Shown here in pieces: positions 3,899-64,000 of a DNA stretch of 64,000 nucleotides. The translations under genes and the position numbers were made by a program. Below the pieces are notes generated by a model. It saw only the letters and a list, made by a program, of their open reading frames with translations, was not told the origin of the DNA and made no database searches. The DNA comes from an uncultured Bacteroidota bacterium (lineage in GTDB: Bacteria > Bacteroidota > Bacteroidia > Bacteroidales > P3), in NCBI GenBank assembly GCA_902762805.1, contig CACWPQ010000006.1:64695-128694 (forward strand), written 5' to 3'. How positions within the stretch are numbered: position 1 is the first letter of the stretch; each line of letters starts with the position of its first letter.

Positions 3899-5104
3899 AT
3901 GCGCATCGAAGGGCTCATCGCGGTGCGCTACCTCTTCGCCCGCCGGCAACGGTCGGTGGTGAACATCATTTCGTGGATTTCGCTCGTCGGGCTGATGGTC
4001 AGCACGGCGGCGCTGATTATAGTCCTCTCGGTCTACAACGGCATCGGCGAGCTGACCAAGAGCCTATTCAACACGTTCGATCCCGAGCTCGTCGTCGAGC
4101 CGGCCGAGGGCAAGACCTTCCGCCTGACGGAGATCCCCTACAGCACGATTGCGGGCGCCGAAGGGGTGGCCGAGGTGGTGCCGCTGGCCAGCGAGTCGGC
4201 CTGGATTACCTACAGCGACCAGCAGGCCATCGTCACCCTCCGCGGCGTCGGCGAGGGCTACGCGCGCCTCACCGGCCTCGACACCCTGCTGGCCGACGGG
4301 CGCTACGACATCTCCGACCACAGCCTCATTCTCGGCGGCGAGATATTCCACCGCCTCGGCATGCGCATCCCCTCCCCCACCCCGGCCACCGTCCACATCC
4401 CCAAGCGCGGCACCACCAGCCTCGGCATGACCATGGACGAGGCCTTCAACATCGCCTATGCCTACCCCGCGGCCAACTTCTTCATCCAGCAGGACATCGA
4501 CCGGCGCTACGTGGTGACCGACATCGCGCTGGTGCGCCGACTGATGGACTACGCGCCCGACGAGTGCACCGCCCTCGCCCTGCGCCTGGCGCACGGGGCC
4601 GACGCGGCCAAGGTGAAGCGTGAGCTCAACTCCTCACTCCTCACTCCTCACTCCCCACTCCTCATCAAAGACCGCTACGACCAGCAGCCGCTCTATTTCA
4701 AGGTGTTCCGCACCGAGCGGCTCGGCATCTACCTCATACTCTCGCTCATCGTGCTCATCTCGACGCTGAGCCTCGTGGCGTCGCTCTCGCTGCTGATTAT
4801 CAACAAGCGCGGCGACATCTTCATGCTGCGCAGCATGGGCATGACGGCGCGGCAGGTGCGCCGCTCGTTCCTGGCCGAGGGGCTGCTCATCTGTGCCGTG
4901 GCCGTGGCGGCGGGACTGCTGATTGGCTTCGTGGTCTGCTTCCTGCAGCAACAATTCGGCCTTATCCGCATGGGCGACGGCAACTTCGTGGTGGAAGCCT
5001 TCCCCGTGGCCATGCGTGCACAGGATTTCCTCTGGACCTTCCTGCTGGTGATGGTCCTGAGCTCGCTCTCGGTCGCCCTTACAGTCCGCAGGGCCCGAAT
5101 CTGA
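3899..5104 (+). CDS. FtsX-like ABC transporter permease (LolC/E family)
   Basis: N-terminus IAVRYLFARRQRSVVNIISWISLVGLMVSTAALIIVLSVYNG. Large periplasmic loop and three C-terminal TM helices. The rbfA-adjacent position is typical of Bacteroidales. Confidence 0.85.
   Translation: MRIEGLIAVRYLFARRQRSVVNIISWISLVGLMVSTAALIIVLSVYNGIGELTKSLFNTFDPELVVEPAEGKTFRLTEIPYSTIAGAEGVAEVVPLASESAWITYSDQQAIVTLRGVGEGYARLTGLDTLLADGRYDISDHSLILGGEIFHRLGMRIPSPTPATVHIPKRGTTSLGMTMDEAFNIAYAYPAANFFIQQDIDRRYVVTDIALVRRLMDYAPDECTALALRLAHGADAAKVKRELNSSLLTPHSPLLIKDRYDQQPLYFKVFRTERLGIYLILSLIVLISTLSLVASLSLLIINKRGDIFMLRSMGMTARQVRRSFLAEGLLICAVAVAAGLLIGFVVCFLQQQFGLIRMGDGNFVVEAFPVAMRAQDFLWTFLLVMVLSSLSVALTVRRARI
4625..4666 (+). 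repeat. Heptanucleotide tandem repeat (CCTCACT)x~6 inside the permease CDS
   Basis: ctcaact cctcact cctcact cctcact ccccact cctcatc, translated as ELNSSLLTPHSPLLIK. Confidence 0.85.
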
Positions 5105-5155
5105 ATGTCAAAATCTCCGCATTAGGATGGCGGATGAGGAGGGTTGCTTTCCGTG

Positions 5156-6223
5156 CTATAATATACACTTCACGCGGAAGCCGCGAGTGGTGGGCTCTTC
5201 AACAATCTCCTGGCATAGCGGACGGAGCGAGTCCTTCACCTCGCCGATGAACGATTGCTGCACCCCCTCCTTCATGAAGTCGAGCGCCACGATTTCCGAC
5301 ATCTCGCTGTAGGTCAGGCGCAGGGTGTAGGGATAGCGCGACGCCATCACCGACCCGGTCATGAAGTCCACAATCTTGTCCGCCGCCTCGCGCTTGGCGG
5401 CGATGTTGTATTTGTTGCAGAAAGCGGCCATCTGCGTGTGGATGCCCAGCATGTCGTAGTCCGCGCCGTCCACCTCGAACACCAGTTTGTGGATGCGCTG
5501 CACGAACTGCTTGGTGGCGCTGTGCACGGGGTTTTCAAATATCTGCTGCGGCGTGCCGTCCTCGTAGATGATGCCCTCGTTCATGAAGAAGATACGCGTG
5601 CTGACGTCGCGCGCGAACTTCATCTCGTGGGTGACGATGAGCATGGTCATGCCTTCGGAGGCCAGCTGTCGCATGACGCTCAGCACCTCGCCCACCATGG
5701 TGGGGTCGAGGGCGGAGGTGGGTTCGTCGAAGAGGATCACCTCGGGGTGCATGGCCAGGCAGCGGGCTATGGCCACGCGCTGCTTCTGTCCGCCGGAGAG
5801 GTCGCTTGGCATGGCGCCGGCCTTCTCGCCCATGCCCACCTTGCGCAGCAGCGTCATGGCTTCGGCCTCGGCCTCGGCGCGCGCGGTGCCGCGCAGCTTC
5901 ATCGGGGCGTAGGTCACGTTGTCGAGGATGCTCAGGTGCTCGAAGAGGTTGAAGCTCTGGAACACCATGCCCATCTTCTGACGCATTTTGTTGAGGGGGT
6001 ACCCTTTGGCCAGGATGTTCTCGCCGTCGAAGATGATTTCGCCGCCGGTGGGCGGGTCGAGCAGGTTGAGGGCGCGCAGGAAGGTGCTCTTGCCGGTGCC
6101 CGAGGGGCCTATGATGCTGATGACCTCGCCGCGCTGGATGTCGCAGTTGACATCTTTCAGCACTTTGAATATCGACCCGTCGGGGTTCACAAACTGTTTG
6201 CTCAGGTGCTTTATGGTGATCAT
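5156..6223 (-). CDS. Polar amino-acid ABC transporter ATP-binding protein with ~110-aa C-terminal extension
   Basis: Walker A GPSGTGKST, signature LSGGQKQRVAIAR, Walker B ILFDEPTSALDP. GlnQ/ArtP-like. An extra C-terminal domain follows residue ~245. Confidence 0.9.
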   Translation of the reverse strand: MITIKHLSKQFVNPDGSIFKVLKDVNCDIQRGEVISIIGPSGTGKSTFLRALNLLDPPTGGEIIFDGENILAKGYPLNKMRQKMGMVFQSFNLFEHLSILDNVTYAPMKLRGTARAEAEAEAMTLLRKVGMGEKAGAMPSDLSGGQKQRVAIARCLAMHPEVILFDEPTSALDPTMVGEVLSVMRQLASEGMTMLIVTHEMKFARDVSTRIFFMNEGIIYEDGTPQQIFENPVHSATKQFVQRIHKLVFEVDGADYDMLGIHTQMAAFCNKYNIAAKREAADKIVDFMTGSVMASRYPYTLRLTYSEMSEIVALDFMKEGVQQSFIGEVKDSLRPLCQEIVEEPTTRGFRVKCIL

Positions 6224-7701
6224 TTCTTTGTGTTTTTAACGGTGAGGTCGAGCGCCTTGCCCAGCAGCCAGGCCAGGATGAAGTAGATGATGGTGATGAG
6301 CAGCAGGGGGAAGAAGGCGTCGAAGGTGCGGTTGCGGATCATGTCGCTGGCGCGCGTGAGGTCCTGGATGGCAATGTAGCCCACGATGGAGGTGTTCTTC
6401 ACCAGCGACACCGCCTCGCCCTTGTAGACGGGCATCACGTTGCGCAGCGCCTGCGGAGCCACGATGTAGGCGAAGGTCTGCCAGCGGGTGAAGCCGATGG
6501 CCAGGCCCGCCTCGGTCTGCCCGTGGCTGACCGACGAGATGGCCGTGCGGAACATCTCGCTCACGTAGGCCGCGAAGTTCAGCGCGAAGGACACCACCGC
6601 CACCGCCGTGGCGCTCAGCCCCGTGCCGGAAAGGACCACGTAGAACATGATCATCAGGAACACCAGCATCGGTATGCCGCGCATGATGTCCACATACACC
6701 TTGGCAGTGGTGCTCACCCAGCGCCTTCTGCTCATGCGCATCCAGCACACGCCGGCGCCCAGCAGCGTCCCCAGCAGGATGGAGAAGAGGGAAATCTTGA
6801 CCGTCTCCCAGAGACCCTCGACAATGTAGCGCCAGCGCTCTTCAACAACGAGATTGGTGTGGAACGACTGCTTGATGCTCCCCCAGAAGCCCAGCTTGTG
6901 TCCTCCGTCCTCCGACTTCACAAAATAGCCCGGATAGGCGTAGTAGTGGACCGACGAGAAGTCGATCGTCTTCTGTCGCTCCTCGGTGACGAAGATGCCG
7001 CCGCACATGATGTCGATATTGCCCGACTGCAACGCGGTTGCGGCCGTGGTGAAGTTCATGTAGACAATATCCACCGGCCGCCCGGCGTAGCGGCTGAAGC
7101 GCTGCAACAACTCGGGTTCGAATCCGTGCCAGCTTTTTCCGACAGGGAAGCCTATGGGAGGAATATTGACCGCTATGCCCACAACAACAGGCTTCCCCTC
7201 GGGCATCGGGCCGAGGTCGGGCATCGGCACCCGCGACGGCGTGTCGCACACGAACCACCGGTCGTACATCGTCTGCAACTCGCCCGTGGAACGCAGCGAA
7301 TCGATGAAACGGTTGAGCACCTCGCGCACCTCCACCCGCTCGGGGTCGCCCTTGCGGAAGCAGAAAGCGCAGGCGAAGCGCTCCTTGCCGCGGAAGGCCA
7401 GCTTGATGCCGATGCGCGCCATCTCCTCGGGCGACATGAAGGTGTCGTCTTCCACCTGCACATCCACCTTGCCGCGCACCAGCGCCTCGGAGCCGTCGCT
7501 CTGCATATTGAAACTCATCTTCGTGATGTCGGTACGCGGGGCAAGCATCATCTCGTAGATACCCCCCGAGGTGTAGCACACCCGCAGGCCAGCCAAGTCT
7601 GCCTCGCTCCGCAACTCGCGGCCTTCCAGGCCGCCGTCCTTCTGGCATGCGGTCAGCACAAAGACCAGCATACCCAACAAATATAATAGTTTCTTTTTCA
7701 A
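6220..7701 (-). CDS. Fused amino-acid ABC substrate-binding domain(s) plus permease (lipoprotein)
   Basis: TTG at 7701 gives (M)KKKLLYLLGMLVFVLTAC, a lipobox; the alternative ATG is at 7671. SBP family-3-like halves precede a HisM/GlnP-type permease (MRGIPMLVFLMI...EAGLAIGF). ATGA overlap with the ATPase gene. The track start at 7869 is an unlikely upstream extension. Confidence 0.8.
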   Translation of the reverse strand: MKKKLLYLLGMLVFVLTACQKDGGLEGRELRSEADLAGLRVCYTSGGIYEMMLAPRTDITKMSFNMQSDGSEALVRGKVDVQVEDDTFMSPEEMARIGIKLAFRGKERFACAFCFRKGDPERVEVREVLNRFIDSLRSTGELQTMYDRWFVCDTPSRVPMPDLGPMPEGKPVVVGIAVNIPPIGFPVGKSWHGFEPELLQRFSRYAGRPVDIVYMNFTTAATALQSGNIDIMCGGIFVTEERQKTIDFSSVHYYAYPGYFVKSEDGGHKLGFWGSIKQSFHTNLVVEERWRYIVEGLWETVKISLFSILLGTLLGAGVCWMRMSRRRWVSTTAKVYVDIMRGIPMLVFLMIMFYVVLSGTGLSATAVAVVSFALNFAAYVSEMFRTAISSVSHGQTEAGLAIGFTRWQTFAYIVAPQALRNVMPVYKGEAVSLVKNTSIVGYIAIQDLTRASDMIRNRTFDAFFPLLLITIIYFILAWLLGKALDLTVKNTKK

Positions 7702-47873: not shown

Positions 47874-48374
47874 CTAGAACGGCAATTCAAATTCAACACT
47901 GTCATTGAACTCTGCCATCTTCAGCGCCGTCACAGCTCCCTCCACGCCCTTGTTCCCGTGGCGGCCGCCGGCGCGGTCCAGCGCCTGCCGCATCGTCTCC
48001 GTGGTCAGCACACTGAATATGACGGGCCGCTCGTGCTTGACCGCCACGTTGGTCAGTCCCTGCGACACCGCCTGGCAGATAAACTCAAAGTGGCGCGTCT
48101 CCCCCTGGATGACACAGCCAATGCATATCACGGCATCGACTGAGGTGCGTTTCAGTATGATATCGGCGGCGCTGGTGAGCTCGTAAGTGCCGGGCACACG
48201 GCGCACCAGCAAATCCTCCTCCTCCACTCCGTGCTCGCGCAGGGTATCGAGGGCGCCTTGGAGCATGGCATTGGTTATTTCGGGGTTCCACTCGGCGGCT
48301 ACAATGGCAAAGCGGCGACCCTTGCCCGAGGGGATGGCTGCGGGGTCGTAGGCTGAAAGGTTGGTCTTTTTCAT
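47874..48374 (-). CDS. ribH: 6,7-dimethyl-8-ribityllumazine synthase
   Basis: FAIVAAEWNPEIT...VPGTYELT...VICIGCVIQGETRHFEFI...NKGVEGA. Confidence 0.93.
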   Translation of the reverse strand: MKKTNLSAYDPAAIPSGKGRRFAIVAAEWNPEITNAMLQGALDTLREHGVEEEDLLVRRVPGTYELTSAADIILKRTSVDAVICIGCVIQGETRHFEFICQAVSQGLTNVAVKHERPVIFSVLTTETMRQALDRAGGRHGNKGVEGAVTALKMAEFNDSVEFELPF

Positions 48375-48375
48375 G

Positions 48376-49299
48376 CTAGAAGTCTTTTATATTAAATGTA
48401 GGGGCTGCCACGCTGGCGGCGCGGCGCTTGCCCTTGGGAGTCTCTTTGATGCGGCTGGCGTCGGGCTTGTGGTGCGACTCGTGGCCGGCCGTCGGCTTCC
48501 GGATGCCGAAGTAGGTCTTGTCCAGGTGCAGCAGCCGCGTGCGGAGCGTGTAGTTCTCGAAATCGAGTATCCACTCCGGATCGAAAGTCTGGTATAGGAA
48601 GCGGCACTCGAAGTGCAGGTGCGGCCCGGTGCTGTTGCCCGTGCTTCCACCAAGCCCCAGCACCTCGCCGGCGGCCACCTGCTGGTGGGGCTGCACATTG
48701 ATTTTCGACAGGTGCCCGTAGAGCGTCTCCAACCCGTTCGGGTGGCGCACCACCACGCAGTTGCCGTACCCACCCATGCGCGCCGCCACACGCACTATGC
48801 CGCCGAAAGCCGCATAGACCGGGTCGCCGGTCGCAAGGGCGATGTCCACCCCGTGGTGGCCCCGCTGCCACCGCCACCCATACTCCGAGGTCTTCGTGTT
48901 GCGCACCGGGAAGCAGAAGTCCGACGTATCCGCCATCAGGCGCAGGATGATTTCGTCTGGCAGCATGTCCACCTGCGTGCGTCCGTGGGGGTTGACGCGG
49001 TGCTGCGGGAACGCGTCGTACCACATCGGCACCATCGCCCGGTCCATCGCGGGCCGTGCCGCGGCGGAGTCCTTGGGCGCCGGCGCGGGTTGCACCGCCT
49101 TCCGCTCGGGCGTCGCCTTGGGCTTGGGTTTGTTGGGGTCCACCTTCTTGACCACCTTGGGCGGGTTCTTCGCGCGCTCCAGGCGCACGGCGATGAGCGA
49201 GTCGAAATACGACTGCTGCGCCTCCACGCGCCCCAGCCCGCAGAGCAGCACCAGCAGCAACACCAGCGTGCGCCGCAGGCGCGCGATGGGGATACCCAT
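48376..49299 (-). CDS. Alternative model: M23 peptidase translated from the internal in-frame ATG
   Basis: The ATG at 49299 gives MGIPIARLRRTLVLLLVLLCGLGRVEAQ/Q, a canonical Sec signal peptide, followed by a Pro/Lys linker and the M23 domain. Confidence 0.4.
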   Translation of the reverse strand: MGIPIARLRRTLVLLLVLLCGLGRVEAQQSYFDSLIAVRLERAKNPPKVVKKVDPNKPKPKATPERKAVQPAPAPKDSAAARPAMDRAMVPMWYDAFPQHRVNPHGRTQVDMLPDEIILRLMADTSDFCFPVRNTKTSEYGWRWQRGHHGVDIALATGDPVYAAFGGIVRVAARMGGYGNCVVVRHPNGLETLYGHLSKINVQPHQQVAAGEVLGLGGSTGNSTGPHLHFECRFLYQTFDPEWILDFENYTLRTRLLHLDKTYFGIRKPTAGHESHHKPDASRIKETPKGKRRAASVAAPTFNIKDF

Positions 49300-50670
49300 C
49301 TGCTCGCGGTATTTGGCCACCGTGCGCCGCGCCAGCGGGTAGCCCTGCGCGTTGAGCATCCGCGTCAGCGCGTCGTCCGAGAGCGGCGCCTGCTTGTCCT
49401 CGGCGGCGATGGCGTCGGCCAGATGCTGCTTGATGGCTTCCACCGACACCTCCTCGCCTCCGTCGCCCATCATGCCTTTGGAGAAGCACTCTTTGAGCGG
49501 TATGGTGCCGAAGTCGGTCTGGAGGTATTTGCTGTTGGCCATGCGCGAGATGGTGCTGATGTCCAGCCCCGTGGCCTCGGCCACTTCGCGCTGCCGCAGG
49601 GGCTGCAGCTGGTCGGGGTCGCCCGTGAGCAGGTAGCGGCGCTGGTGGCGCACCAGGTAGCGCATGACGCGCACGATGGTGTCGTGCCTCTGCTGCAGCA
49701 GGTCGATGAAGCCCTGTGCGTCGTCCCGCTTGGTGCGCAGGAACTGCAGCGTCTCGCGGTCCCCCTTCGCCTTTTCCATCTCGGCCAGCATGTCGGTATA
49801 GTAGCTGTTGAGCGAGAGGCGAGGCAGGTGGCTGTCGTTGAGGTAGAAGCTGAGCTGCCCGTCGTGCTGCTGCAGCACGATGTCGGGCGTGATGGTCTGT
49901 GCCGCGAGGTCGCTGTCGGCCTCCGAGCTGCCGGGTTTGGGGTTGAGGCGCCGGATGAGGGCGGTGGCTGCGTCGAGCTCCTGCTGGCTGATGCCGAGGT
50001 CGGCGCAGATGCGCTCGTAGCGGTGGTTGGCCAGGTCGTCGAAGTGGCGCTCCACGATGTCGAGCGCGCGGTCCACCTCGTCCGTTGCCTCCATCCGCTG
50101 CAACTGCAGCAGCAGGCATTCCTGCAGGCTTCGGGCGCCGATGCCGGGCGGGTCGAGGCTTTGGATGATGCGCAGCACGCCGAGCACCTCCTCGCGCGAG
50201 GCGTCGATGCCTTGGCGGAAGGCCAGGTCGTTGGTGAGCAGGTCGAGGTCGCGGCCCAGGTAGCCCGCATCGTCGAGCGAGCCGATGAGCTCGTCGGCTA
50301 TGCGCTGCTGCCGCTCGTCGAGGTCGCGGCTGACCAGCTGCGAAGCGAGGCGGTCGGCAAACGAACTGCTGTCGGCCACCACGAATTCGCGCTGCCGCGC
50401 ATTGGGGTCGCTCTCGAGGTGCTCGCGGTAGTCGTATCCGAAGTCTTCCTCGTCGCTGTCCCAGTCCGAGCTGTCGTTGTCGGCAGCCGAGACGATGTCG
50501 TCGATGTTGGCTGTGTCGTCGGGTGCTTCGGCATCCAGAAGGGGGTTCTTCTCTATCTCCTCCTTGATGGCCTGTTCGAGGTCAGTGACAGGCAACTGCA
50601 GCAGACGCATCAGCTGTATCTGTTGCGGTGATAGCCTCTGCTGCAGTTGCTGTCGCTGAACTTGTTTCAT
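48376..50670 (-). CDS. rpoN: RNA polymerase sigma-54 factor continuing in frame into a signal-peptide/TM segment and an M23 (LytM) peptidase domain
   Basis: N-terminus MKQVQRQQLQQRLSPQQIQLMRLLQLP (region I). RpoN box ARRTVAKYREQMGIPIARLRR, then with no stop TLVLLLVLLCGLGRVEAQ. Later HHGVDIAL...GNCVVVRHPNGLETLYGHL...GSTGNSTGPHLHFE is the M23 domain. Confidence 0.8.
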   Translation of the reverse strand: MKQVQRQQLQQRLSPQQIQLMRLLQLPVTDLEQAIKEEIEKNPLLDAEAPDDTANIDDIVSAADNDSSDWDSDEEDFGYDYREHLESDPNARQREFVVADSSSFADRLASQLVSRDLDERQQRIADELIGSLDDAGYLGRDLDLLTNDLAFRQGIDASREEVLGVLRIIQSLDPPGIGARSLQECLLLQLQRMEATDEVDRALDIVERHFDDLANHRYERICADLGISQQELDAATALIRRLNPKPGSSEADSDLAAQTITPDIVLQQHDGQLSFYLNDSHLPRLSLNSYYTDMLAEMEKAKGDRETLQFLRTKRDDAQGFIDLLQQRHDTIVRVMRYLVRHQRRYLLTGDPDQLQPLRQREVAEATGLDISTISRMANSKYLQTDFGTIPLKECFSKGMMGDGGEEVSVEAIKQHLADAIAAEDKQAPLSDDALTRMLNAQGYPLARRTVAKYREQMGIPIARLRRTLVLLLVLLCGLGRVEAQQSYFDSLIAVRLERAKNPPKVVKKVDPNKPKPKATPERKAVQPAPAPKDSAAARPAMDRAMVPMWYDAFPQHRVNPHGRTQVDMLPDEIILRLMADTSDFCFPVRNTKTSEYGWRWQRGHHGVDIALATGDPVYAAFGGIVRVAARMGGYGNCVVVRHPNGLETLYGHLSKINVQPHQQVAAGEVLGLGGSTGNSTGPHLHFECRFLYQTFDPEWILDFENYTLRTRLLHLDKTYFGIRKPTAGHESHHKPDASRIKETPKGKRRAASVAAPTFNIKDF

Positions 50671-50707
50671 TCTTTAGCGGACGATTTCCATAATGGCAGG
50701 TTATGGA

Positions 50708-52885
50708 CTATCTGACGATGTCCATCTCCTCGATGAGGTTCTTGGCGCCGGCATAGACGTCGATGACCCAGAGCATGTAGCGGCTGTCGAGGCAGATGCA
50801 GCGCTGCAGGTTCTCTTCGAAGTCGATGTCGCCGCTCATGGCCTCGCTGTTGCCGTCGAAGGCCAGGCCGATGAGGCGGCCGCGGGCGTCGATAACGGGC
50901 GAGCCGCTGTTGCCGCCGGTGATGTCGTTGTTGGTGATGAAGCAGGTGGGCAGTTCGCCGCGGCGGTTGGCGTAGCGGCCGAAGTCTTTCTTGGCGTAGA
51001 GCTCTTTGAGGCGGGCGGGCACCTCAAATTCGCCGCCCGCGGGGCCTTCCTTCTCGATGACGCCTTTCATGGTGGTGAAGTAGTGGTACGAGACGCCGTC
51101 CTTGGGGTCGTAGCTCATCACGTTGCCGTAGGTGAGGCGGATGGTGCTGTTGGCGTCGGGCGACATCAGTTTGCCGTTCTTGTCGTTGATTTGCAGGATG
51201 CCGTCGGTGAAGTCGCGGATGCCGCGCTCCAGGCCGTCCTTGGTCTCCTTCGAGCCCAGCTCGTTCACTTCGCGGTAGCGCTCGTAGGTCTCCTTGCCGG
51301 CCTGGAAGGCGGGGTCTTTCTGCAGCTTCTTCAGGTCGGGCTTCTCCATGAATTTGGCGAAGCTCTCCTCGGTGGCGAAGATGGATTTCTTGAAGAGGTT
51401 CTCGACGAATTTGGTGCAGTCGCCTTTGCCTTTCTTGCCGGCCTCGAGGAGGAACTGGGGCATGTACTCCTCGCTCATGTGCTCGTAGACGTAGTTGAAG
51501 AGGCCGGTCATGACGCGCTGCTCGGTCTGGGGGTTGTAGTCTTTGTAGAAGTCGGCGGCCGACGAGCGGAGGCTTTCGATGATCTGGTCGCGCATTTCAT
51601 CATAGCGGGGGTCCTGGATGGTTTCGAAGGTGCTGCCCACGCGGAAGGCGCGCAACAGCAGTTCGGGACCGCTCAGCAGGCCTTCGCGCAGGTAGAGGCT
51701 GGCCTCTTCGGCGGTGCGGCGCTCGGCGTAGCCGTTGCTGATGAGGTCGAGGGCGCGGCTGTACTTGGGGTTGCGCTGCTTGCGGGCCCAGTCCATGTAT
51801 TCGCGCTCCACGTCGCGCTTCAGGCCCATCGTGTTGAGGTTGCGGAGGGCTTTGTTCTGCTCGTTGCTGTATTTCCAGTAGTTGGAGCAGGAGGCGTACT
51901 TCGAGGCGTATTTGATGCGGGTGGCCTGGTCGGCGGCCATCTCTTCGCGCAGGATGTTGATTTTCACGGTGCGGATTTCATAGACCAGCTTGTTGGTGAT
52001 CTCCATCGTCTCCTCGAGGCCGTAGCTGGTGAGGAAGTGGTCGGTCGTGCCGGGGAAGCCCATCACCATGGCGAAGTCGCCGTCGTTGATTTCGCCGGCG
52101 CTGACGGGCAGCGAGTGCTTGGGTTTCAGGGGGACGTTGTCTTTCGAGTAGTCGGCGGGGGTGCCGTCGGGGGCGGTGTAGATGCGGAAGAGCGAGAAGT
52201 CGCAGGTGTGGCGCGGCCAGCTCCAGTTGTCGGTGTCGCCGCCGAACTTGCCCATCGACGACGGCGGGGCGCCCACCAGGCGCACGTCGCGATAAATCAT
52301 GTGGACAAAGAGGAAGAACTGGTTGCCGTTGAACATGGGCTTCACCGTGGCGTTGTAGAGGGTGCCTTCGGTGGCCTTGGCGGACAGCTGCTCGGAGATT
52401 TTCTCGATGGCGGCCTGGCGGTCGTCCTCGCTCATCTCGTCGGTGATCACCTCTTTCACCTTGTCGGTGACGTCCTCCATGCGGACGAGGATCGAGGCGG
52501 TGAGGCCCGGGTTGGGCAGCTCCTGGTCCTTGGTGTAGGCCCAGAATCCGTCGCGCAGGTAGTCGTGCTCCACGGTCGAGTGCTCCTGGATTTTGCCGTA
52601 GCCGCAGTGGTGGTTGGTGCTCATCAGGCCCTGCTTCGAGATGATCTCGCCGGTGCAGAAGTGCCAGAAGGGGGTGCCGGCGTTGCCGAGGCCCACGATG
52701 GCGTCTTTCAGGCAGCTGCGGTTGATGCTGTAGATGTCCTCCGGCGTCAGCTTGAAGCCGGCGCGCTGCATGTCGGTGTAGTTCTTGCCGATGAGCGACA
52801 GGAGCCACATGCCTTCGTCGGCACGGGCGGCGTTGGGCAGCAACAGGCTGAACGCCAACGCGAGTGCTAAAGTGCGAATTTTCAT
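50708..52885 (-). CDS. S46-family dipeptidyl-peptidase (DPP7/DPP11-like)
   Basis: Signal MKIRTLALALAFSLLLPNAARA, then DEGMWLL, TNHHCGY and GGNSGSPV, which carry the catalytic His and Ser motifs of S46. Confidence 0.93.
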   Translation of the reverse strand: MKIRTLALALAFSLLLPNAARADEGMWLLSLIGKNYTDMQRAGFKLTPEDIYSINRSCLKDAIVGLGNAGTPFWHFCTGEIISKQGLMSTNHHCGYGKIQEHSTVEHDYLRDGFWAYTKDQELPNPGLTASILVRMEDVTDKVKEVITDEMSEDDRQAAIEKISEQLSAKATEGTLYNATVKPMFNGNQFFLFVHMIYRDVRLVGAPPSSMGKFGGDTDNWSWPRHTCDFSLFRIYTAPDGTPADYSKDNVPLKPKHSLPVSAGEINDGDFAMVMGFPGTTDHFLTSYGLEETMEITNKLVYEIRTVKINILREEMAADQATRIKYASKYASCSNYWKYSNEQNKALRNLNTMGLKRDVEREYMDWARKQRNPKYSRALDLISNGYAERRTAEEASLYLREGLLSGPELLLRAFRVGSTFETIQDPRYDEMRDQIIESLRSSAADFYKDYNPQTEQRVMTGLFNYVYEHMSEEYMPQFLLEAGKKGKGDCTKFVENLFKKSIFATEESFAKFMEKPDLKKLQKDPAFQAGKETYERYREVNELGSKETKDGLERGIRDFTDGILQINDKNGKLMSPDANSTIRLTYGNVMSYDPKDGVSYHYFTTMKGVIEKEGPAGGEFEVPARLKELYAKKDFGRYANRRGELPTCFITNNDITGGNSGSPVIDARGRLIGLAFDGNSEAMSGDIDFEENLQRCICLDSRYMLWVIDVYAGAKNLIEEMDIVR

Positions 52886-60275: not shown

Positions 60276-60380
60276 GGGGATTTTTTGCACAAAAACCGAA
60301 AAACAGCCCAAAATCGCCCAAATACAACAGGTTGAATATCAGTGCGTAAAAGGCATCCTCTTCTTCCTCTCTTCTTCTAT
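60276..60380 (+). repeat. Second intergenic repeat family (E-element), copy 2
   Basis: gggattttttgcacaaaaaccgaaaaacagcccaaaatcgcccaaatacaacaggttgaatatcagtgcgtaaaaggcatcctcttcttcctctc. Confidence 0.55.
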
Positions 60381-60512
60381 GGTAGCGGATGTTTTGGGGA
60401 ACGGGGAAATGCACTTTTGAGACGGCGTTTTTCTAGAGGAGGTATACCCTGTCGGACGAGCGTTTTACAACTTTTTAAGATTAAAATGTTTGGCCGTATG
60501 GGGGAAAATGCG

Positions 60513-60520
60513 TACTTTTG
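60513..60520 (+). promoter_or_regulatory. -7 promoter box TACTTTTG for the M23/LysM gene
   Basis: aaaatgcgTACTTTTGCAac lies 34 nt upstream of the ATG at 60555. Confidence 0.5.
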
Positions 60521-60554
60521 CAACACTTTTTGTATACTGATTGAAAATAAAGGA

Positions 60555-61802
60555 ATGAAATATATTGAACGCATCTTATTGCTACTCACCCTCTTGACAG
60601 CCCCGTTTGCCGCCAAGGCACAGGTGCGCGAACCACAGAAGAAAACCGACAAGTCGGAAATCAAGGTCAATAAACTGGATGTGATCTACGAGGAGGAGGA
60701 GTTCAAAGGCGTAGTAATCGACCTCCGCAACGACAAGGAGACGGAGCAGTACCTGTATACGGCACCTTTCATTTTCGAGACCGAGGATGAGCTGGAGACC
60801 GACGATGCAGACGAACTGCCCGGCAACTACAACCTCAGCGACGAAGGTGCCACGAGTGAGGACGAGATACTGATTGAGGGTTTCGACACGTCGGAGATAC
60901 ACCGAGAGAAGTTGGATGTGTCGCGTATGGTCGAGCCTGTCACCATATTGCTGCGCGACGAGTCGCAGGGCAAATTTTTCCACTGGCCGACACCGAAGAG
61001 CGCCCGTCCGTCATCGCACTTCGGTCCGCGCTGGCGCCGCTTCCACTACGGCCTCGACCTGGCGCAACCCACGGGCGAGCCCATCTACGCCGCTTTCGAC
61101 GGGACTGTGCGCATATCGAAACGCAACCGCTCTTACGGCCACCTGGTCATCATCCAGCATGCCGACGGACTGGAGACCTACTATGCCCACATGTCGAAGC
61201 GCCTGGTGGATGCCGGCGACCACGTGAAAGCCGGCGACGTCATTGGCCTCTGCGGCAACACCGGCCGCTCGTTCGGCAGCCACCTGCATTTCGAGATACG
61301 CTACCAGGGCAACGCCATCAATCCCGAGCTTGTCATCAACTGCGCGACCCACGACCTCATCTCCGACCGCCTGACGCTCACGCCGGCCTCGTTCCGCAAG
61401 GTGAGCAGCCACAAACGCTCCAGTGGCGGAAGTAGCTCAAGCAGCGGCTGGTACCGTGTGCGCAAAGGCGACACGCTTGAGAAAATTGCCCGCCGCCACG
61501 GCACCACCGTCAGGCGCCTCTGCCAACTCAACGGCATCAGCAAGGACAAGGTACTTCATCCGGGCGACCGCCTGCGCGTCAGCGGCTCGAGCAGTGTGAA
61601 AAGTGGAGGCAAGGGTTCTGCCAGTCAGGCTGGTTCTGCCGGCAATACCGGTGGCGCCACCAAGACCTACACCATCCGCCGCGGCGACACCCTCGGCAAG
61701 ATAGCCAAGCGTCACGGCATGAGCATCAAGGACCTCTGCAGCCTCAACGGCATCAAGCAGAACAAGACCATCCGCGAAGGACAGAAACTGAAGGTGAGGT
61801 AA
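60555..61802 (+). CDS. M23 peptidase with two C-terminal LysM domains
   Basis: ATG at 60555 gives the signal [30 protein letters not shown]...[20 protein letters not shown]...[14 protein letters not shown] is the M23 domain. The LysM repeats are [17 protein letters not shown]...LN and [17 protein letters not shown]...LN. Confidence 0.9.
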
Positions 61803-63251: not shown

Positions 63252-64000
63252 ATGGAACAGCAACTGTTGATTTACAATACTTTGAGCCGTCAGAAAGAGC
63301 TCTTCCGCCCCCTGCATGAGGGGCGGGTGGGCATGTATGTCTGCGGCCCCACCGTCTACGGCGACGCCCACCTCGGCCACGCACGCCCGGCCATCACCTT
63401 CGACGTCGTCTTCCGCTACCTCCAGCACCTCGGCTACAAGGTGCGCTACGTCCGCAACATCACCGACGTGGGCCACCTCGAGCACGACGCCGACGAGGGC
63501 GAAGACAAGATTGCCAAGAAGGCACGCCTCGAGCAGCTCGAGCCCATGGAGGTGGCGCAGTACTACATGGGCCGCTACCATACCGCCATGGACAAGCTCA
63601 ATGTGCTGCCCCCCAGCATCGAACCCCAGGCCTCGGGCCACATCATCGAGCAGATAGCCCTCGTGCAGCAGATACTCGACGCCGGCTACGCCTATGTCAG
63701 CAACGGCTCGGTCTACTTCGACGTGCGCAAGTACCAGGACGACACCCACAAGTACGGACGCCTATCCGGCCGCGTCATCGACGAGATGCTCGCCACCACG
63801 CGCGAGCTCGACGGACAGGACGAGAAGCGCTTCCCCGGCGACTTCGCCCTCTGGAAGAAAGCCTCGCCGGAGCACATCATGCGCTGGCCCTCGCCCTGGA
63901 GCGACGGCTTCCCCGGCTGGCACGCCGAGTGCACCGCCATGGGCGCCAAGTACCTCGGCTCGCCGTTCGACATCCACGGCGGCGGCATGGACCTCGTCTT
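63252..64000 (+). CDS. cysS: Cysteine--tRNA ligase, N-terminal part (runs off the window)
   Basis: [21 protein letters not shown]...[19 protein letters not shown] (HIGH motif) ...[11 protein letters not shown]...DIHGGGMDL. Open to the window end, so it is absent from the ORF track. Confidence 0.92.

Follow-up and report, generated by a model that had tools for sequence, protein, structure and literature searches.

The 64,000-nt stretch of contig CACWPQ010000006.1 from an uncultured Bacteroidales bacterium analysed here (below, the window, to which all coordinates refer unless another locus is named) contains on its reverse strand, at 48376–50670, a single open reading frame (ORF) of 764 amino acids (aa) that starts with ATG and encodes a complete sigma-54 factor (RpoN) followed, with no stop codon in between, by a complete metallopeptidase of the M23 family. 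The fusion is a real, conserved ORF with both halves under purifying selection; it originates from separate rpoN and M23 genes, and the anatomy of a signal peptide is kept at the junction. We propose, with a probability only slightly above one half (approximately 0.55), that the product is a polyprotein split at the retained signal peptidase site, in which the internal signal would export the M23 domain and signal peptidase I would separate the two halves. To our knowledge, sigma-54 is regarded as a soluble factor of invariant architecture, controlled only by AAA+ activators. In this abundant clade of rumen and gut Bacteroidales it would be synthesized solely as the leading portion of a precursor destined for secretion.

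Architecture and conservation of the fusion

The protein, which begins with MKQVQRQQLQQR, has four Pfam matches, all scoring far above the gathering thresholds. The activator-interacting domain of sigma-54 region I (Sigma54_AID, PF00309, E = 1e-12) occupies aa 2–46 (50533–50667; all features of the fusion are on the reverse strand), the domain binding core RNA polymerase (Sigma54_CBD, PF04963, E = 6.6e-55), aa 97–291 (49798–50382), and the DNA-binding domain with the helix-turn-helix (HTH) and the RpoN box (Sigma54_DBD, PF04552, E = 3.9e-46), aa 309–467 (49270–49746). The NCBIfam model of RpoN (TIGR02395) is covered end to end by residues 7–467 with 406.8 bits against a cutoff of 277. The catalytic domain of the LytM-type M23 metallopeptidase (PF01551, E = 2.9e-31, 108 bits) is located at aa 604–698 (48577–48861) and has the zinc ligands of both motifs, HxxxD (H605, D609) and HxH (H684, H686). 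Its nearest relatives of known structure in PDB, 3slu (the best one, E = 3e-25), 6muk, TagE, and ShyA, are active peptidoglycan endopeptidases.

The RpoN box ARRTVAKYRE (aa 447–456, 49303–49332; columns A447–E456 are invariant) usually lies near the C-terminus, with the stop codon 20–23 residues past the first R of RRTVAKYR in 15 unfused relatives. In the window, the translation of 49204–49332 is ARRTVAKYREQMGIPIARLRRTLVLLLVLLCGLGRVEAQQSYF, with no stop past the box and with an in-frame ATG at 49297–49299 (M458), and the stop is found only at 48376–48378, 297 residues after R467, the usual total length of sigma-54 being approximately 450–500 aa. In these respects the original prediction, made from the same DNA, described the ORF correctly.

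The last residues of sigma-54, RLRR (aa 464–467, 49270–49281), correspond to the conserved RLR[RK] and at the same time form the basic n-region of a signal-peptide-like segment that precedes the M23 domain. Its h-region TLVLLLVLLCGLG and c-region RVEA (aa 468–484, 49219–49269) are recognizable both by the n/h/c layout and by homology to the signal peptides of separate M23 proteins. Signal peptides are usually placed at the N-terminus of a precursor, and this one begins at residue 464 of 764. Signal peptidase I is predicted to cut between A484 and Q485 (A484/Q485; here and below the slash marks the cut), and an example of a semi-tryptic peptide starting from the predicted Q is QVSYYDSLINAR. The predicted mature N-terminus QQSYFDSLIAVRLE, a conserved helix in the region of the conserved SYYDS motif, is followed by a Pro/Lys-rich disordered linker (together aa 485–591, 48898–49218).

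The same fused frame is observed in 45 species-representative Bacteroidales genomes (scan with one genome per species), nearly all of them recovered from metagenomes of the rumen or gut of cattle, sheep, goat, deer, yak, and buffalo. The fusion is found in at least 120 protein clusters, and all four domains are present in each of the 120 best ones (66–100% identity, 741–799 aa). When 1.84 billion representative proteins were searched exhaustively, approximately seven more fused representatives emerged at 43–53% identity (760–839 aa), and the matches ranked below them are ordinary sigma-54 factors of approximately 480 aa. The nucleotides at the junction vary among genomes, while the reading frame is always kept. 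The exact window protein, a member of a cluster of 30 sequences, is encoded on eight contigs. Annotation pipelines label the fused proteins merely "RNA polymerase factor sigma-54", a name that hides the peptidase half. Approximately half of the listed members of the 90% cluster of the window protein are 744 aa long instead of 764 (the difference corresponds to 50611–50670), which is consistent with gene callers choosing M21 as the start; the upstream ATG at 50670 agrees with the conserved N-terminus MKQVQRQQLQQK of the homologues.

Selection acts differently along the protein. The ratio of nonsynonymous to synonymous substitution rates (dN/dS) equals 0.23 in sigma-54, 0.61 in the signal segment at the junction, and 0.13 in the M23 core, these values being approximate due to high dS. 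Across 57 fusion proteins, the RpoN box, the HTH, residues 21–45 of region I, and H605, D609, H684, and H686 are invariant, and amino acid conservation is as low as 0.28–0.33 over aa 501–540 in the linker. Hence, sigma-54 and M23 are both strongly constrained, and the signal segment changes rapidly in sequence with its pattern maintained. The synonymous codon diversity, calculated for 46 fused genes (mean 0.63), decreases to 0.40–0.48 at aa 61–90 and 211–230 (50403–50490 and 49981–50040), the first stretch being the acidic region II; either biased codon use in runs of Asp and Glu or some embedded element could account for these minima.

An error of sequencing, assembly, or gene calling that erased a stop codon or a frameshift between ordinary rpoN and M23 genes has nothing in its favour except the a priori oddness of the architecture. 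It is refuted by the in-frame junctions with differing nucleotides in 45 species-level genomes originating from many projects and assemblers, by the identical protein on eight contigs, and by purifying selection on both halves, and its probability is practically nil. The lost or misread stop codon of the original prediction is thereby rejected as an artefact of sequencing and retained as an evolutionary event, the loss of the stop by deletion, to which the unfused loci point.

Origin of the fusion in an ancestral locus

In 15 low-GC environmental Bacteroidales, asnS, rpoN, a gene of a 208-aa polytopic membrane protein, a gene of an M23 peptidase with a C-terminal LysM domain (M23-LysM), and ribH are found in this order. 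The rpoN genes of these relatives encode 472–478 aa with the stop directly past ARLRKxxx, and M23-LysM bears its own N-terminal signal peptide. The arrangement for which the original prediction suggested looking in related genomes, a stop codon after the RpoN box and an M23 gene downstream, is thus observed both here and in locus L063, the nearest unfused relative (52% identity). In the latter, the rpoN stop is followed by a 33-nt spacer and a separate M23 gene, whose product begins with MTKRNNIRGFARKG-FLFRLTPFTLLLFLTFHL-SPSTLQA/QQ…ESYYDSLI. This separate M23 and the C-terminal half of the window protein share 50% identity over 293 aa (E = 2e-89), and the alignment of that half with the M23 of locus L060 extends through the signal peptide itself. 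The motif RLR[RK] is kept in fused and unfused genes, the unfused stop coming 0–7 residues later.

Downstream of all these loci the neighbours are the same, ribH and fmt (in the window, ribH, encoding lumazine synthase, is at 47874–48374 on the reverse strand), which places the fusion in the ancestral rpoN…M23-ribH-fmt locus. Taken together with the homology of the M23 domains and signal peptides, the unfused loci indicate a deletion that took out the stop codon of rpoN, the spacer, and the beginning of the M23 gene with its start codon and n-region; the basic tail of sigma-54 (…ARLRR) was thereby brought in frame with the hydrophobic core (h-region) of the signal peptide preceding M23.

The LysM domain at the C-terminus is kept in the unfused orthologues and in the deeper fusions (P0121–P0126), and is lost in the rumen clade, including the window, where the remaining C-terminal tail is at 48376–48510 (compare 7150–7292 of L060 and P0121–P0128). 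Hence, the locus records a path from three genes to two adjacent genes, then to a fusion with LysM, and finally to a fusion without it.

Moreover, locus L062 carries, at 4001–6478 of a single contig, an 825-aa fusion of rpoN and M23-LysM with the junction ARLRK-GFFLALFLFIFNFISFG/Q. In the neighbor-joining tree of the sigma-54 part, the fused L062/P0128 groups with the unfused low-GC, asnS-linked lineage, and in the deeper part of the tree fused and unfused members are interleaved. According to this tree, which is crude and has no support values, there were two or more fusion events, or a fusion followed by reversion; that of L062 is apparently an independent event, joined at the identical point. 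Repeated fusion at one junction suggests that the basic tail of sigma-54 was pre-adapted to the role of an n-region.

Two further features of these loci may be mentioned. The membrane protein of 208–214 aa between rpoN and M23 in L043–L060 (e.g., 5417–6043 of L060) belongs to no Pfam family; neither L063 nor any of the fused loci encodes it, and the window contains no homologue of it. The gene 5' of the fusion, at 50708–52885 on the reverse strand, encodes an S46-type dipeptidyl-peptidase, identified by sequence resemblance. The same type of neighbour is present in L037, and in this position the low-GC relatives have asnS, which indicates that the 5' flank of the locus was rearranged as well.

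The signal peptide at the junction and the predicted processing

In all 46 fused genes considered, RLR[RK] is followed by 17–23 residues comprising a hydrophobic core (median length 9) and a c-region rich in G, P, and S. The residue at position –1 relative to the predicted cut is small (A in 41 genes, G in three, S in two), and that at +1 is always Q, followed by SYYDS. An identical pattern of a small residue before Q ends the N-terminal signal peptide in 15 of 15 unfused orthologues. Q at +1 is a signature of signal peptidase I substrates in Bacteroidetes, the "Q-rule" (PMC5837995). Signal peptides of this class combine a basic n-region, an h-region of 7–15 residues, and a c-region with a small residue at –1. 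By its sequence pattern the junction is thus a canonical cleavable Sec signal peptide, with cleavage predicted in 46 of 46 genes.

For comparison, the genome of the window has a stand-alone M23 peptidase at 60342–61802 on the forward strand (the likely start is near 60555), with two C-terminal LysM repeats and an N-terminal signal peptide whose 22 residues end in AKA/Q. It is approximately 40% identical to the catalytic domain of the fusion, so the genome encodes at least two M23 enzymes, just one of them fused to sigma-54.

The following sequence of events may be proposed. Every translation of rpoN would yield an 85-kDa precursor composed of sigma-54, the signal peptide, the linker, and M23. 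The internal signal, leaving the ribosome after the 467-residue sigma-54, would engage the signal recognition particle and Sec; the positive charges of RLRR would hold sigma-54 on the cytoplasmic side, and the linker with the M23 domain would be translocated. Signal peptidase I would then cut at the small-residue/Q site (A484/Q485 in the window) and free periplasmic M23, probably with a pyroglutamate at its N-terminus. Sigma-54 would retain a 17-residue hydrophobic C-terminal tail, too short for stable anchoring, which might be extracted from the membrane or clipped by the machinery for remnant signal peptides, that is, an RseP-type site-2 protease (S2P) or SppA, and its removal would release sigma-54 for transcription. 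In this scheme the sigma factor is in effect a giant n-region of the signal peptide of its neighbour, and two proteins would be produced from one ORF by proteolysis and not by internal initiation. If this is true, no earlier sigma-54 would be known to depend for its availability on the Sec pathway and envelope proteases; the precursor would also be a rare case of a bacterial polyprotein divided by signal peptidase at a signal sequence inside the chain, and a natural test of signal peptide function far from the N-terminus.

The original prediction also considered a true fusion giving a membrane-tethered sigma-54, of which the fusion stands, as a conserved and selected ORF, and a lasting tether is improbable. 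A stable tether would be an uncleaved type II signal anchor with sigma-54 inside and M23 outside, sigma-54 either working at the membrane in the manner of ToxR or being held there inactive. The position of RLRR ahead of the hydrophobic stretch fits the N-in/C-out topology, the AlphaFold2 model has a continuous helix at 462–477, and sigma factors of the extracytoplasmic function (ECF) group with membrane-spanning C-terminal extensions, e.g., ECF263, exist. However, only 13 uncharged residues precede R481 in the window, and the median core of nine residues has the length of a signal peptide; a hydrophobic stretch of this length is too short for a stable membrane anchor. Neither the c-region, nor the small residue at –1, nor Q at +1 is needed in a pure anchor, and all three are conserved in 46 of 46 genes; moreover, no linker is left between the membrane segment and the RpoN box helix, which must occupy the –24 major groove. 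The short uncharged stretch and the universal small-residue/Q site argue that the segment is not a transmembrane anchor, and the tethering of sigma-54 to the membrane is probably no more than transient, a permanent tether being quite improbable. Still less probable is a cytoplasmic fusion, ignored by Sec, with the C-terminal peptidase activity irrelevant or repurposed. It is true that signal sequences are normally N-terminal, and one that follows 464 residues may target poorly; but the invariant catalytic residues and dN/dS of 0.13 imply an active enzyme, whose substrate is periplasmic, and the pattern of the signal peptide has been held despite the turnover of its sequence. The hydrophobicity of the h-regions is, if anything, higher in the fused genes than in the unfused ones (3.49 vs. 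3.07), a difference confounded by GC content and phylogeny and for this reason not relied upon.

The remaining alternative, raised in the original prediction with a potential start at M458 (the M of REQMGIP), is that the translation of M23 begins mainly at an in-frame codon within the 3' portion of rpoN, be it the M458 ATG, GTG at V462, or another codon, with the read-through fusion as a tolerated by-product. ATG at M458 is present in just 4 of 46 fused genes, the others having Leu, mostly encoded by CTG. Several counts seem to favour a start elsewhere in this region: at least one ATG, GTG, or TTG is found among the 16 codons before the h-region in 43 of 46 genes (52% in the background); V462 is encoded by GTG in 33 of 40 genes, with 20.4 expected from the gene-wide usage of Val codons (P ~2e-5); loci lacking this GTG more often have a nearby ATG (4 of 13 vs. 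2 of 33); and in the deep fusions P0121 and P0123 ATG directly follows RLRR. The naive enrichment disappears under controls from the same alignment, and hence the same tree, as V462 is only the fourth of 22 conserved Val columns in GTG use and 108 of 846 alignment windows (13%) are equally rich in start-type codons. Moreover, any ATG at all occurs in the region in six of 46 genes, compared to 25% in the background, and three genes have no candidate start. Initiation in Bacteroidetes relies on an A-rich, unstructured context (PMC6847099). The 20 nt upstream of real rpoN starts contain 39% A, those upstream of V462, 20%, and the folding energies are –6.9 and –17.9 kcal/mol, respectively, with –13.1 kcal/mol for random in-gene windows; the base at –3 of the candidate internal start is C in 37 of 37 loci, and it is also C at M458 of the window.

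No gene of the 46 has the Bacteroidetes –7 promoter motif TAnnTTTG within 300 nt upstream of the h-region. The synonymous diversity at aa 440–500 is 0.67–0.76, that is, without a dip below the gene mean, and an overlapping nucleotide element (a start region, a frameshift signal, or an RNA structure) was rejected on these grounds; the Rfam scan of the whole window yielded no matches. Finally, in the absence of a stop codon the full-length fusion is translated regardless of any internal start. Internal initiation thus has no specific support, and we consider it improbable as the main source of M23. The ATG after RLRR in P0121 and P0123 is probably the ancestral M23 start, and in such early-stage fusions M23 may still come from both routes. 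The residue following RLRR in other fusions (A, V, I, T, or L, mostly one mutation from ATG) is a plausible relic of the M23 initiator given these two cases, a signal too weak to claim.

Several points weigh against the polyprotein split by signal peptidase I. Export and cleavage are deduced from sequence conservation only, the fate of sigma-54 is likewise a prediction, and the cleavage site was assigned by hand from the –3/–1/+1 rules. It is unusual in bacteria for a cleavable signal peptide to start as late as residue 464, behind a folded cytoplasmic domain. The small-residue/Q site could have been kept because a fraction of M23 comes from an internal start, a possibility to which the start-type codons in the n-region of 43 genes and the ATG of P0121 and P0123 belong. 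A second, unfused rpoN, if present in the fused genomes, could lessen the importance of the sigma-54 half. The number of fusion events rests on the crude tree. The AlphaFold2 model of the full fusion is weak, with the mean predicted local distance difference test (pLDDT) score of 61.6 and the predicted template modeling (pTM) score of 0.30. It is modular, with no packing between domains, and consists of sigma-54 with pLDDT 70–92 across the core-binding domain, the above-mentioned helix 462–477, a break at 478–485, a helix at 486–501, disorder at 502–591 (pLDDT <50), and the beta-domain of M23. The low pTM notwithstanding, such a model is compatible with independent modules, that is, folded sigma-54 domains, a signal segment, and M23.

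A more far-reaching version of the polyprotein scheme, which we consider rather unlikely, makes sigma-54 a self-contained substrate of regulated intramembrane proteolysis, tethered at birth to the Sec translocon and the membrane by the signal peptide of its fused enzyme, and free for RNA polymerase only after the export of M23 and successive cuts by signal peptidase I and an S2P-type protease. Were it true, transcription by sigma-54 would be coupled, stoichiometrically and kinetically, to secretion capacity and cell wall remodelling, and a sigma factor would serve as the "n-region" in a signal peptide, a mode of control for which no sigma-54 is known.

Other features of the window related to sigma-54, a factor that recognizes –24/–12 promoters and requires activators, are few. 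Neither a GAFTGA-type motif of sigma-54 activators (bacterial enhancer-binding proteins) nor a second rpoN is present within the window, and one weak –24/–12-like site is found at 63918 on the forward strand (TGGCACGCCGAGTGCA, 10 of 11 consensus positions). Long forward-strand ORFs lie opposite the rpoN fusion (48613–50631, 672 aa) and the S46 peptidase gene (50693–52870, 725 aa); both are repetitive and of low complexity, and most likely are stop-poor frames of a genome with 61.6% GC and not genes.

Comparison with known systems

In the literature searched, we found no report of sigma-54 fused to M23 or another secreted enzyme or bearing a membrane segment. The domain arrangements of RpoN listed in a 2025 survey are combinations of AID, CBD, and DBD only, with no M23 entry in its supplementary tables (PMC12316311).

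One close counterpart is the ancestral pair of rpoN and a separate M23-LysM gene, which shares with the fusion the orthologous genes, the ribH-fmt neighbourhood, the h-region, the A/Q site, and SYYDS. The stop codon, the spacer or an extra gene, the start and n-region of M23, and LysM are present in the ancestral locus and are gone in the window.

Among membrane-associated regulators, signal-anchor proteins of the ToxR/CadC type have an uncleaved helix of approximately 18–20 or more hydrophobic residues and a linker, whereas the fusion has 13 uncharged residues and no linker. ECF sigma factors with C-terminal extensions resemble the fusion in the covalent link between a sigma factor and an extension that interacts with the membrane; ECF263, for instance, carries five or seven transmembrane helices (10.1101/2019.12.11.873521). 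Those factors, however, belong to the sigma-70 family and are extended by regulatory domains or polytopic anchors, and not by a cleavable signal peptide with a hydrolase. Similarly, pro-sigma-K and pro-sigma-E of Bacillus subtilis are born as membrane-associated precursors that need proteolysis, as proposed for the fusion, pro-sigma-K being processed by the intramembrane S2P SpoIVFB (PMC6242693). They are also of the sigma-70 family, have N-terminal pro-sequences of approximately 20–30 residues removed by SpoIVFB and SpoIIGA, and involve neither a secreted enzyme nor a Sec signal, whereas sigma-54 is extended at its C-terminus by approximately 300 residues that stem from the gene next to it, so that the fusion does not fall into the pro-sigma class.

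The topology resembles that of the type II anti-sigma factors RsiV and RsiP, regulating sigmaV and sigmaP, in which signal peptidase makes the site-1 cut, and the S2P RasP then removes the stub left in the membrane, so that sigma activity is released (PMC8844934, PMC9044953). They combine a cytoplasmic N-terminal domain, a hydrophobic segment, a signal peptidase I site on the outer side, and an extracytoplasmic domain, and the fusion reproduces this order at the level of its sequence. Unlike it, RsiV and RsiP are anti-sigma factors of ECF sigmas from the sigma-70 family, and their cleavage is gated by a ligand; in the fusion the cytoplasmic domain is sigma-54 itself, an enzyme forms the outer domain, and nothing points to gating. 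The last step would correspond to the clearance of remnant signal peptides by RseP following leader peptidase cleavage (PMC8144685), or by SppA. In this process a short membrane peptide left by leader peptidase is cut by S2P, and the tail of sigma-54 would be such a remnant; usual remnants are peptides of approximately 20 residues, whereas this one would carry a folded sigma factor of 467 residues on the cytoplasmic side. By analogy, then, each step of the proposed mechanism has a precedent, the site-1 and S2P cleavages in RsiP and RsiV, and the removal of the remnant by RseP.

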